From: Escherichia coli
Lineage (GTDB): Bacteria; Pseudomonadota; Gammaproteobacteria; Enterobacterales; Enterobacteriaceae
Strand: one strand, 5' to 3'
Assembly: GCF_044324785.1 (NCBI RefSeq)
Contig: NZ_CP172127.1
DNA: 64,000 nucleotides
This document shows, piece after piece, positions 52,601 through 55,600 of the stretch; position 1 is the stretch's first letter, and every line of letters starts with the position of its first letter. Made by a program: the position numbers.

Positions 52601-55600
52601 ATGTGCTTACAGCCAAACATGGTTATGATATTGATTATATTTACTATGCCTTAAGACTTGAATTAAAGCGATTGCGAGAAAAATCTCAAGGCTCGCAAAC
52701 AAAGTTTCTGACAATGCCGATTTTGACCAGTATATCGCTAGGAAACCTAGTCGAGACTGAACAATCGACAGTTTCAAGAGTATTAAAAATACTGGATAAA
52801 AAAATCGCTCTCAACAATCGTATCAACGCCGAGCTGGAAGCGATGGCGAAAACACTGTATGACTACTGGTTTGTACAGTTTGATTTCCCTGATGCCAACG
52901 GAAAACCGTATAAAACCTCCGGCGGGAAGATGGTGTACAACGCCACGCTGAAACGGGAAATTCCGGCGGGGTGGAATATTAAAAATCTTGGCGATATAGC
53001 GGAACTATATCAGCCTAAGACCATTTCAGGTAACGATTTTATTGATGATGGTGAATATCTTGTATATGGAGCCAACGGTATTGTAGGAAGATTCAATAAA
53101 TATAACCATGAAGAACCTGTCGTTACAATCACCTGCCGTGGAAATACGTGCGGCAATATAAACGTCACACGACCATATTCATGGATTACAGGGAATGCAA
53201 TGGTGGTTAAGCCAAAGTTTAACTATATTTCACCTTATTATATTTATAATTTATTGTCGATATCGGAAGTTGATAAAGTCATTACTGGCTCTGCTCAACC
53301 TCAAATTACGCGAGCAAACCTAGCTCCACTTAAGGTTGTTGAACCAGCAGAGGACATTACGCAAAAATACTCAAAGTCTGTTGATGCTTTTTTTAAAAAG
53401 CATATCTCAATATTAGATGAAAATGATAATTTATTAAAACTCCGCGACTGGCTCCTCCCCCTGCTTATGAACGGACAGGTCACGGTCAAATAATCCCCGC
53501 CGTGTTTTGCGAGGCGCATTCCAGATCCACATTGCGCCGCGCTCACCGCTGTAAAACCGCTTGCCGTTCATAACCGATCGAAGTATCTTTCTCCCGCGCC
53601 TGCAAAATCAGGCGTCGGGATTAGCCTCCTGAAAACCGTTACAGGCGACACTTGACGCACCAGCGTCTTTTTTGTGTCGTGCGTTCGGCTACACCTCAAT
53701 GGCGGGCCGGGCGGGGGCGTCGCAAGACGCGCCGGTTTCCTGTAACGCCGGTAAGGCTAACCCCGTCCGGTTCCGCCACCCATGAGATTAGCCTCTCTAG
53801 TGGCGGACATAATAAACCGTTACAGGAGATGCCCTATGGCTACAATCCTCACCCCTGACTGCGATTTACTCGATCTGTTATCCGTTCCCTTCAATGCCAC
53901 CACGGATTTTACTGTCCTTGCCGATTACTGCACCCGCTTCGCCGAAACCCTGATAGAAACCGACGATCCCGCGCTGCGGCTGGCGCTGAGCGGACGGCTT
54001 CACGCGGCTCTTGCGCTACTGCAACCCACACTGCATGACCCCATCCCGCCGCATCTTACCGAAAGCCTGACCGTTAATACCCTTCCCGCCACACCAGAGC
54101 ACTTTATTTCCGAACCCGATTCCTTGTGCGAATACTGCCTCGCACTGCTCCAGCTTCTGCTGGAACGCCCGGCGGAGCCAAAAATGGAGCAAACCCTGAC
54201 CGGGCTGCTGTGTGAGCTGGTCTGGAATTTCACGGAAGGACTCAAATCCCCGCGCTGGCTGCGTACCGCCGACGGCGTAAAATTTATCAGTGAGGTGGCC
54301 GCATGATGCAACAGGACTGGCATTCCACCGACATTATCGCCACGCTGAAAAAGCGGGGAACGTCTCTGGCGGCGCAGAGAAAAACTCATTGCGGACGCGC
54401 TGTAAATATCGTCAGAAATCATCTGGCCTTCAAGGTACTTTGATAGCAAAGGCAAGCAGGCTGGTTCAGTCCCGTGTTTCTCTTCTTGCATTTTCAGAAA
54501 TGGGAGGCTGGGAGTCTATCGAAATGGTTCGTCGATATGCTCACCTCGCACCTAATCACCTTACCGAACACGCACGGCAAATAGACTCGATCCTGAACCC
54601 ATCGGTCCCAAATTTGTCCCAGTCAAAAAATAAGGAAGGTACTAATGATGTGTAACTTATTGATTTAAATGGTGCCGATAATAGGAGTCGAACCTACGAC
54701 CTTCGCATTACGAATCTGTAGAACCAATCATAACTATCTGTTTTAGCAAGCATTAACCGCATTCACCAAGCAATAGTTGATGGCACAAACAGAAAGTTGA
54801 TGCATGATGTTGTCATGTGTATGTCACAAATACGGCACAACGATCTTCAAACATGTAGCCACCCAGCATAGAAGAGCACAAATCCTTGCAATCCAGTGCA
54901 AAGCTTTGTGTACCTTAGTTTTGTCTCATAGGTAATTCTGCTTTAACTGCGATGCAGGAATCTGTCACCAGACGCACGTCTCGTTGTTTTATGGTTTTCC
55001 GTTCATGATTAATATGTTAGCTTGTCAAAGTTTGTGTTTAAGATATGGTGATTGATGCAATGTTAAGCGTTCAGATGACTCCACAAGCAAAAGTTAGCTT
55101 CGAGGAGCAATGTTTTTTTCATGCTTCATGTCTTGTTGTTGCCCCAATAAATGTTGGAGCATTCTCCTACTTTGGCGCTAATTGTATGCTCGGCGGCTTT
55201 ACGATGGGTAGATTTTGTTCAGTTGCTCCAGGAGTAAAAATTGGCCTTGGCGAGCATGAAACTGGGTATTTTTCTACGCATCCTTTTTTCTTTGGCTCAA
55301 AAAATGGTTTTAAAATCCCTGATGGTATAGGAATGCAACGCGACCTCTCTCAACAGAAGCATGGTATACCAAGAATTGGTCATGACGTATGGATAGGTGC
55401 AAATGCGGTTATCAGGCGAGGTATAACTATTGGTACTGGCGCTGTTATTGCTGCTGGCGCTATTGTCACCAAAAATGTCGATCCATATTCAATCGTAGGT
55501 GGCGTTTCTGCAAAACACCTAGGGTACAGATTTGAGGAATCAATCATCAAAGAGTTACTGGATAGCCAATGGTGGGAATATGATTTAAGCTCATTTATTG

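Follow-up and report, generated by a model that had tools for sequence, protein, structure and literature searches.

A non-functional scar beside thrW in Escherichia coli, made of a defence-island regulator remnant and a phage integrase 3' end

Within a 64,000-nucleotide stretch of the E. coli contig NZ_CP172127.1 (assembly GCF_044324785.1; hereafter the window), an ordinary scar without function adjoins the tRNA gene thrW and consists of the remnant of a defence-island regulator and the 3' end of a phage integrase gene. We are confident that its junction joins the decayed ends of two mobile elements directly downstream of thrW and that the product is non-functional. The locus carries three lesions: a 65-bp deletion, a TAA nonsense codon at 54403-54405, and the fusion junction itself. 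The original prediction had read the segment as the trace of one deletion that removed most of an integrase gene and part of a Ner-like gene; the deletion scar and the loss of most of the integrase (82%, codons 1-305 of 372) both stand, but the three lesions speak against a single event. The pseudogenes of the scar are already annotated, and the scar is known in kind.

Lesions and breakpoints

The first segment of the Ner-like pseudogene (54303-54371, plus strand) corresponds to codons 1-23/24. Residues 5-24 of a 46-aa ORF that is open in the window (54303-54443) match positions 1-20 of HTH_35, the Pfam profile of the Ner/Nlp family (PF13693), at 26.8 bits (cut-off 25; E=5.3e-6), the family's conserved N-terminal segment DWH.ADI.A.L+K+G.SL is present, and residues 1-23 of intact E. 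coli homologues align to the same positions at 61-74% identity by tblastn. The predicted Ner-like N-terminus is therefore real, far beyond what chance would give. Its similarity does stop near 54370, as expected from the earlier observation that the frame diverges after 24 residues, but this point is an internal deletion rather than the point of fusion. Alignment with three intact homologues places a 65-column gap at 54367-54370 (plus strand), in a TGGC microhomology with flanks CTGGC and GTGGC; the deletion takes out approximately codons 24-45, which encode the helix-turn-helix, and shifts the frame by +1. A second segment, identified by tblastn and DNA alignment, follows in the +1 frame at 54373-54456 (plus strand), matches residues 42-74 of an intact homologue at 73% identity, and retains the IWPSRY motif of the family; the longer motif IA.AL...IWPSRY (54385-54438) is interrupted by the TAA, which stands in place of a Glu/Asp codon. 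Because the gene resumes past the 65-bp gap and continues to 54456, the fusion cost it only its last ~8 codons, whose place is taken by integrase sequence.

The uninterrupted ORF of ~70-85 codons found in Ner/Nlp genes is absent here. The Ner protein of phage Mu (PDB 1NEQ, E=1e-22) and EnrR (7F9H, 8e-20) are both matched by an intact homologue from an E. coli island, and the window copy has in common with these HTH_35 proteins the N-terminal motif DWH..DIIA.LKKRG.SL and the C-terminal motif IA.AL....IWPSRY. Unlike them, it lacks the helix-turn-helix, stops early, and is short of its last ~8 codons, features that, judged from sequence, mean that it cannot be a functional member of the family.

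Ner homology ends and integrase homology begins at GGCAA(G), positions 54451-54456 on the plus strand, a microhomology of 5-6 nt common to the Ner-like gene (AAAGGCAA) and the integrase gene (TGGGCAAG); BLAST matches to integrase genes of phages and E. coli begin exactly at 54451. The integrase pseudogene (54452-54655, plus strand; delimited by tblastn, DNA alignments and Pfam) comprises codons 306-372 and the stop. In translation, 54452-54652 is 88% identical to residues 306-372 of the intact 372-aa integrase beside thrW in E. coli NWU_4, with the last 52 residues identical (E=2e-38 in a small tblastn search). Pfam Phage_integrase (PF00589) aligns over only positions 137-171 of 172, at 22 bits and below the cut-off of 27.1. 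In the intact protein the HDLRHT box precedes the point where the remnant starts, so all that survives is the GGW and RRYAH (Tyr) region: the HxxR box and everything upstream are gone, and in place of a complete R-K-H-R-H/W-Y catalytic domain the remnant keeps the tyrosine and is missing the other five of the six catalytic residues. Thus the suggested tblastn searches with intact homologues did map the breakpoints, Ner similarity running to 54456 and integrase similarity starting at codon 306; an integrase C-terminus with its catalytic tyrosine (the last 67 residues), in a different frame from the Ner remnant, was found as predicted, again at a similarity far above chance. A P4-type integrase, one of the two kinds suggested as queries, is not the source; the fragment belongs to the lambdoid, thrW-specific HK542/SfX/SfII group.

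The remnant is itself a hybrid. Positions 54457-54496 are HK542-like, with 7 differences from HK542 and ~20 from SfII, and 54497-54655 is SfII-like (99.5%); the identity of 99.5% extends over 54497-54715, which correspond to the int 3' end and attP of phages SfII, SfV and phi458. Such a hybrid could descend from an integrase that was already mosaic in a phage. Between the integrase stop and the tRNA 3' end lies a 14-nt spacer (54656-54669; placed by alignments and by the annotation of two related loci) that is the same in phage attP and at intact thrW, and both its length and its sequence recur in NWU_4, HK542 and SfII.

The surrounding locus and its intact relatives

A 46-nt 3' fragment of the tRNA-Thr gene thrW follows at 54670-54715 on the minus strand (an exact 46-nt match, with 0 expected by chance). 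It is the counterpart of K-12 ptwF and the att core copy at the junction of the resident prophage: identity with intact thrW stops after ...ACGAAT, phage DNA starts at 54716, and ARAGORN finds no complete tRNA in the window. The end of a P22-like prophage occupies 54716-58105, with an attP P-arm flank nearly identical to phage HK542 (54716 to ~54930), a hexapeptide O-acetyltransferase gene identified by a Hexapep match (55045-55716, plus strand) and a tailspike gene with a P22 head-binding domain (55736-58105, minus strand); a gene similar to the P22 antirepressor lies beyond, at 58205-59083. The other end of the prophage lies outside the window, and the arrangement of both ends was verified in SB0258h1 only, where the order is scar, thrW fragment, 39-kb P22-like prophage, xis, int, intact thrW and proA. 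No single genome covers 80% or more of both the same island and the same prophage. A repeat finder detected no direct repeats of arm type on the two sides of the att core, and one weak inverted repeat inside the phage arm. The junction of K-12 ptwF with CP4-6 likewise has a partial thrW copy at the far end of a thrW-integrated element, and in a K-12 derivative, 68 nt left over from the 3' end of an HK-type integrase gene stand ahead of the same 46-nt fragment. That remnant is shorter than the window's, its fusion partner is yagP, a truncated LysR gene, rather than a Ner-like gene, and the inserted element is CP4-6 (intF) rather than a P22-like phage.

The Ner-like gene belonged to a cassette whose other parts survive upstream. 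An isrK-like small RNA gene (53596-53673, plus strand; Rfam 68 bits, gathering threshold 50, E=3.8e-13) overlaps a c4-a1b1 target-like element at 53583-53635 that scores 43.8 bits, just under its gathering threshold of 46.7, and 53654-53667 holds a hairpin with a T-run that resembles a terminator. Among promoters and terminators sought over 53450-55100, this isrK terminator is the only meaningful one, the counts being within or near chance. The isrK region is the start of a regulatory cassette that once included the Ner-like gene. A C4-type antisense RNA gene of the P1 immI/P4 CI class follows (53695-53783, plus strand; 79.9 bits, gathering threshold 45, E=9e-15, over the full model 1-87). It is overlapped by the ORF that PGAP calls 'ash family protein' in related genomes; the ORF at 53672-53785 matches Pfam Phage_ASH below threshold (20.6 bits versus a cut-off of 26). 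Next is hyp156 (53836-54306, plus strand), an intact gene annotated in all related loci as a 156-aa hypothetical protein, whose stop codon overlaps the ATG of the Ner-like gene (ATGA). Its product has no Pfam or PHROG match. Intact islands conserve hyp156 as the partner of their Ner-like genes, and its dN/dS between scar-bearing copies is 0.10-0.16. Like the immI region of P1 (c4 RNA, icd, ant) and isrK-orf45-anrP of Salmonella Gifsy-1 (PMC4825925), the window has isrK-like and C4-like RNAs directly upstream of a two-gene operon with an ATGA overlap; unlike them, its downstream genes are hyp156 and a predicted Ner-like repressor instead of icd/ant or anrP.

Intact islands at pheV and asnT share one architecture: cargo, ash/C4, hyp156, Ner (71 aa), an optional toxin-antitoxin pair, a PF12835 integrase (293 aa), a P4-type integrase (420 aa, on the opposite strand), and the tRNA. 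At the DNA level, hyp156 of the window and that of the pheV island share 85% identity; the isrK/C4 region, hyp156 and the Ner-like gene follow the island order and orientation, with hyp156 and Ner pointing towards the tRNA in both islands and window. The island's own integrase genes are absent between the Ner-like gene and the tRNA, and no sequence separates the Ner remnant from the integrase remnant. The cargo in the window comprises AbiEi/AbiEii and a type I restriction-modification system, and thus resembles the 'integrase-only' defence islands of Hochhauser et al. 2023 (PMC10121019), which carry defence cargo (AbiE, type I RM) beside a tRNA hotspot; neither 'proA' nor 'tRNA-Thr' occurs in the text of that paper. 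The intact island relatives, like 'integrase-only' islands, have integrase genes and no other mobility genes, and in the window even the integrases are gone.

The integrase fragment, for its part, matches int-attP of phages HK542, mEpX2, HK75, SfX, SfII and SfV, in whose records attP is annotated as similar to thrW/ptwF, and NWU_4 has an intact xis-int-thrW arrangement. In the thrW lambdoid int-attP cassettes (HK542, mEpX2, HK75, mEp213, SfX, SfII, SfV and the P22 group) the integrase stop lies ~14 nt from the thrW copy, as in the window, and DNA identity to the remnant is 83-99.5%; the window differs in having only the last 67 of ~372-387 integrase codons, and no xis. These comparisons indicate that the Ner-like gene and the integrase come from different mobile elements and were never neighbours, and the deletion would therefore have taken far more than parts of two genes.

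Distribution and decay in E. coli

A contiguous alignment over both junctions is found in 804 of 5,426 complete E. coli genomes (~15%), and the three lesions are common to all eight scar copies sampled. In E. coli N3, a scar 100% identical to 54280-54668 lies directly beside intact thrW-proA-proB, without a prophage. RefSeq/PGAP annotates a pseudogene pair at thrW in 042, SE15, ST131, N3 and others, with the same locus, junction and lesions as in the window, where the P22-like prophage separates the scar from intact thrW. The two calls, an HTH pseudogene and an integrase pseudogene, are labelled 'helix-turn-helix domain-containing protein' (frameshifted/incomplete) and 'integrase' (missing N-terminus); they flag pseudogenes only and are silent on the internal 65-bp deletion, on the microhomologies, on the hybrid nature of the integrase alleles and on the origin from two elements.

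Decay has continued since. Additional lesions include a stop at Ner codon 6 (TGG to TGA) in SE15, K_EC180 and GPEC172, a 1-nt deletion in 042, and the internal stops or frameshifts reported by PGAP in the integrase frame of SE15, GPEC172, 042 and PSS-11. For E. coli, scar copies differ unusually strongly from one another, by 6-9% in the Ner remnant and with a dS of 0.17-0.28 in hyp156. Two alleles of the integrase remnant share the junction, while their distal parts are only 61% identical. K_EC180 and SE15 have identical hyp156 and nearly identical Ner remnants and differ in their integrase alleles, a comparison that rules out gradual divergence as the source of the two alleles and implies recombination near the junction. 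Taken together, the sequences indicate that the scar has a single origin and has decayed, and is still decaying, neutrally.

Proposed history and alternatives

We propose that the first element was a tRNA-integrated 'integrase-only' defence island and the second a lambdoid prophage with an HK542/SfX-type integrase targeting thrW, and we hold this explanation as a whole to be very probable on the sequences compared. We infer the order and number of events as follows. The island would have integrated at thrW first, and a lambdoid phage would later have entered between island and thrW. One illegitimate deletion at GGCAA(G) would then have brought codon 306 of the phage integrase gene up against Ner-like codon ~74, removing the island integrases, the displaced thrW fragment and nearly the whole prophage, which may already have been partly decayed at that time. 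The defence cargo would have been left immobile, with thrW still intact and usable as an attachment site. The Ner-like gene would also have been hit by the 65-bp microhomology deletion of its DNA-binding helices and by the nonsense mutation. Later, in the lineage of the window, an SfII-type allele would have taken the place of the ~170 nt of integrase remnant nearest to att, probably via homologous recombination with another thrW phage. Finally, a P22-like phage would have integrated within thrW by normal site-specific recombination, because of which the remnant now abuts the 46-nt thrW fragment and phage DNA. The pre-deletion state at thrW, an intact Ner-like gene of at least 90% identity together with island integrases, was not found among the 5,426 complete E. 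coli genomes: every Ner match at 90% identity or more is contiguous across the junctions, and the intact homologues of lower identity that were inspected map to asnT, pheV and a T6SS-flanked site or close to them. The tandem-element history therefore rests on islands at other tRNAs.

Simpler histories fare poorly against these comparisons. A single deletion that joined 24 Ner-like codons directly to the C-terminus of an adjacent integrase would account for two remnants in different frames, and we nevertheless consider it very unlikely: Ner similarity resumes after the 65-bp gap in a third frame and runs to 54456, so that the break at codon 24 is an internal deletion, and in intact relatives the neighbours of the Ner-like gene are integrases of other types. 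Slightly less implausible, though still decidedly unlikely, is one chimeric island or phage in which the Ner-like gene lay shortly upstream of a lambdoid-type integrase, so that a small deletion of 1-2 kb without a tandem prophage would suffice. Mobile elements are mosaic and the pre-deletion state was not recovered, as this would allow, but all four intact hyp156-Ner modules examined lead to PF12835 and P4-type integrases and a tRNA, and every intact integrase of the remnant's type that was looked at belongs to a lambdoid phage or prophage, within a xis-int-attP cassette. Least credible of all is that the 121-aa ORF (54290-54655, with a GTG start) or the 46-aa ORF is a real new chimeric gene. 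Both are open in the window, and the 46-aa product has received a PGAP protein accession in PSS-11 (WP_001424131.1); neither ORF is conserved, however, given the codon-6 stop in the three genomes named above and the integrase-frame stops and frameshifts in four, and both the Ner helix-turn-helix and all but one of the integrase catalytic residues are absent. Up to codon ~54 the 121-aa ORF is the Ner-like gene read out of frame, and only its residues 55-89 match Phage_integrase; in tblastn and Pfam comparisons it does not correspond end to end to any known intact protein, and such a correspondence would have undone the original prediction. Because stops and frameshifts differ between scar copies, we regard this ORF as an artefact.

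The scar may also mark more than decay. In one account, which we think improbable, the integrase 3' end is a P' arm that makes the chromosomal thrW attL-like and has been kept or refreshed for its effect on phage integration and excision. With a mere 14 nt between the integrase stop and the end of the tRNA, the P' arm has to reach into the 3' part of the integrase gene; 54497-54715 is nearly identical to extant phages, in contrast to the decayed 46 nt next to the junction; and the remnant and the prophage P arm together rebuild a complete attP-like site in the window. The SE15-type integrase remnant is matched in 3,843 of 5,426 E. coli genomes, although among the matches listed most cover only its last ~66-69 nt, and in EPI300, the one K-12-type record examined, the integrase piece abuts ptwF; most E. 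coli thus retain, next to thrW or ptwF, the final ~68 nt or more of a lambdoid integrase gene. Against selection, the repeat finder detected no arm-type repeats, and two 61%-identical alleles in the same place, along with frameshifted copies, fit passive replacement by phage recombination. A fixed P'-arm remnant could nonetheless make thrW an attL-like 'primed' site, biasing which thrW phages integrate or excise, and the isrK/C4-hyp156-Ner cassette could act as the switch that controls excision or transfer in 'integrase-only' defence islands; hyp156 would then have retained a function of its own, as purifying selection (dN/dS ~0.12) persists with its partner gene dead. That the scar marks more than decay in these two ways is unlikely.

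On the preferred reading, that the scar is the fused and decaying ends of an island and a lambdoid prophage, it is of little consequence by itself. Annotators should leave both the 46-aa and the 121-aa ORF uncalled as genes, and the C4 and isrK RNA genes are the real features beneath 'ash family protein' calls. At this locus, where recombination is very frequent, the shared junction is a handy indicator of common descent. More broadly, the scar would be a textbook case of a mobile defence island becoming fixed in the chromosome, in which a single deletion strips the island integrases and a neighbouring prophage and leaves the tRNA attachment site still open to new phages.

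Two gene fragments at one junction

The original prediction held that a Ner-like N-terminus is fused out of frame to an integrase C-terminus at 54303-54655, and Pfam matches confirm that both similarities are real and that both belong to fragments. A 46-residue ORF (54303-54443) matches HTH_35 (Ner/Nlp) over profile positions 1-20 only (E=5.3e-6, above the curated cut-off), and a 121-residue ORF in another frame (54290-54655, GTG start) matches only the last 35 positions of Phage_integrase, with a score below the cut-off. Neither ORF is conserved among copies of the scar, as we term the junction of these two remnants beside the tRNA-Thr gene thrW, and we therefore regard both as artefacts. 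PGAP gives the 46-residue truncated Ner ORF a protein accession (WP_001424131.1) in E. coli PSS-11 (L011, 3605-3745); elsewhere it is a pseudogene or unannotated. Assignment to the Ner family is sound, given the similarity of an intact homologue to both Ner of phage Mu (PDB 1NEQ, E=1e-22) and EnrR (7F9H).

Distant BLAST searches of 5,426 complete E. coli genomes recovered Ner-like genes, intact and 68-84 codons long, from other islands, and we mapped the breaks by aligning the window with three of these, checked by tblastn. A 65-bp stretch that spans approximately codons 24-45 and specifies the helix-turn-helix is missing from the window gene; with CTGGC and GTGGC on its two sides, the gap falls within TGGC at 54367-54370. 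Past the gap the gene resumes in the +1 frame (54373-54456, 27 residues), including the family motif IWPSRY, and tblastn accordingly places homologue residues 1-23 at 54303-54371 and residues 42-74 at 54361-54459. The predicted loss of similarity after 24 residues is thus real, but what it marks is this internal deletion; the fusion point lies further downstream. A TAA at 54403-54405 replaces a Glu or Asp codon of the homologues, and the fusion itself took no more than about eight codons from the end of the gene. These inactivating lesions, three in all, are independent.

Integrase similarity starts at 54451/54452, where a 5-6-nt microhomology, GGCAA(G), is common to both parental sequences in DNA alignments. 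Positions 54452-54652 correspond to residues 306-372 of the intact 372-residue integrase beside thrW in strain NWU_4. Because the remnant begins just past the HDLRHT box, all that it retains is the GGW...RRYAH region, which includes the catalytic tyrosine. The segment itself is functionless: the Ner remnant is without its DNA-binding helices, and the integrase remnant without five of six catalytic residues.

The att site, the resident prophage and two integrase alleles

The integrase stop codon is followed by a 14-nt spacer and then, at 54670-54715, by the 3'-terminal 46 nt of thrW, copied exactly on the minus strand; identity to intact thrW ends after ...ACGAAT, and the window holds no complete tRNA. 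From 54716 on, the sequence aligns almost identically with the HK542 attP flank, beyond which lie genes for a hexapeptide O-acetyltransferase, a P22-type tailspike and a P22 antirepressor. In strain N3 the same scar (100% over 54280-54668) adjoins intact thrW-proA-proB without a prophage, and in SB0258h1 the order is scar, thrW fragment, 39-kb P22-like prophage, xis, int (HK542-type, 97.6%), intact thrW and proA. From these two arrangements, we conclude that the window contains the tailspike-side junction of a prophage normally integrated in thrW, and that the scar was already chromosomal flank when this prophage integrated.

At this end of the prophage, the SfII-type remnant (P' side), the thrW core and the HK542-type P-arm flank together make up a complete hybrid attP-like site (54497-54930), resembling the junction between two prophages of a tandem lysogen. 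The O-acetyltransferase gene (CatB-like, 55045-55716), between the att site and the tailspike gene, is probably a serotype-conversion gene; in SfII and the PSS-11 prophage the same position is instead held by the O-antigen-modification genes gtrABC.

Sequence similarity assigns the integrase remnant to thrW-specific lambdoid phages: 54451-54926 is ~83% identical to HK542, mEpX2, HK75, mEp213 and SfX, spanning the attP annotated in each ('similar to thrW and ptwF'), and 54497-54715 is 98-99.5% identical to SfII, SfV, SfIV and phi458. The single junction carries two remnant alleles (window 54451-54668, and 3172-3390 of a second locus, L014), with distal identity of only 61%. In SE15, GPEC172 and PSS-11 the entire remnant is HK542-like (92-93%). 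The other allele, that of the window, N3, 042, K_EC180 and SB0258h1, resembles HK542 over just its first ~46 nt (7 differences, compared with ~20 from SfII) and turns SfII-like from 54497 onward. The window allele is a hybrid with a crossover at ~54492-54499. We infer an original remnant of HK type, whose att-proximal part an SfII-type phage later overwrote by homologous recombination; alternatively, the ancestral integrase may already have been mosaic. K_EC180 and SE15 have identical hyp156 genes (the 156-residue gene upstream) and nearly identical Ner remnants but different integrase alleles, indicating that alleles have also been exchanged between strains near the junction.

The island of origin

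The hyp156 gene (53836-54306) lies upstream of the Ner-like remnant, and the hyp156-Ner pair is intact in islands at pheV (L009; hyp156 DNA identity 85%) and at asnT (L010), in the same orientation towards the tRNA as in the window. There, defence genes lie upstream of the hyp156-Ner pair. Downstream come a toxin-antitoxin pair (optional), a 293-residue PF12835/PF12834 integrase, an oppositely oriented 420-residue P4-type integrase and finally the tRNA. The window's cargo is AbiEii/AbiEi with an hsdR/M/S type I restriction-modification system (45680-53493). Other strains have reverse transcriptase and AbiE (SB0258h1) or other genes at this position, and HsdS is 372 residues in the window and 412 in N3; the cargo is therefore variable even though the scar is common.

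Despite its dead operon partner, hyp156 is undamaged in all copies that bear the scar, and dN/dS values of 0.10-0.16 place it under purifying selection; neither Pfam nor PHROG yields a match to it. For E. coli, dS between copies of the gene (0.17-0.28) is unusually large, and it is also greater than the divergence of the adjoining pseudogene (6-9%). Directly 5' (53583-53783), an isrK-like RNA and a C4 antisense RNA exceed the Rfam gathering thresholds, at 68 and 79.9 bits respectively, and a c4-a1b1 target element scores only near threshold; the arrangement is like that of P1 immI and of the isrK-orf45-anrP operon in Salmonella (PMC4825925). In related genomes a PGAP 'ash family protein' CDS overlies the C4 RNA. 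Since the Phage_ASH match of the corresponding window ORF falls short of the Pfam threshold, such calls may be translations of RNA genes.

Distribution and proposed history

Of the 5,426 genomes, 804 align contiguously over the 65-bp deletion and the fusion alike, and 797 cover at least 80% of a 1.1-kb query. All eight copies sampled share the three lesions, which indicates a single origin. Further lesions differ between copies: Ner codon 6 is TGA in place of TGG in SE15, K_EC180 and GPEC172, the integrase remnant of 042 has lost 1 nt, and PGAP notes internal stops or frameshifts in sampled copies, labelling the pair an HTH pseudogene and an integrase pseudogene.

An element entering thrW ends up beside the intact tRNA, so the observed order of island, integrase remnant and thrW fixes the order of events. 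The island would have entered thrW before the lambdoid phage, and a microhomology-mediated deletion would then have joined Ner codon ~74 to integrase codon 306, eliminating the island integrases (~3 kb, as estimated from L009), the displaced fragment of thrW and whatever was still left of the prophage. The defence cargo would thereby have been stripped of all means of excision. The search of the 5,426 genomes found no pre-deletion arrangement, and this history is thus a reconstruction. Overall, the observation behind the original prediction stands, and the interpretation placed on it is partly supported.

The closest known objects are this very pair, which RefSeq already marks as pseudogenes, and the junction of ptwF, the partial thrW copy of K-12, with CP4-6 (intF). 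In the K-12 derivative EPI300 (L018, 3501-3614), a 68-nt HK-type integrase 3' remnant directly abuts ptwF, with yagP, a truncated LysR gene, on one side and intF on the other. There is a slim chance that the retained integrase 3' end may still serve as a P' arm for thrW phages. Its markedly phage-like att-proximal part and the match of the SE15-type remnant in 3,843 of the 5,426 genomes, in most only over the last ~68 nt, count in favour; a repeat search detected no arm-type repeats. All of these features fit what is established for tRNA-targeting islands and lambdoid prophages, and nothing here is new in kind.
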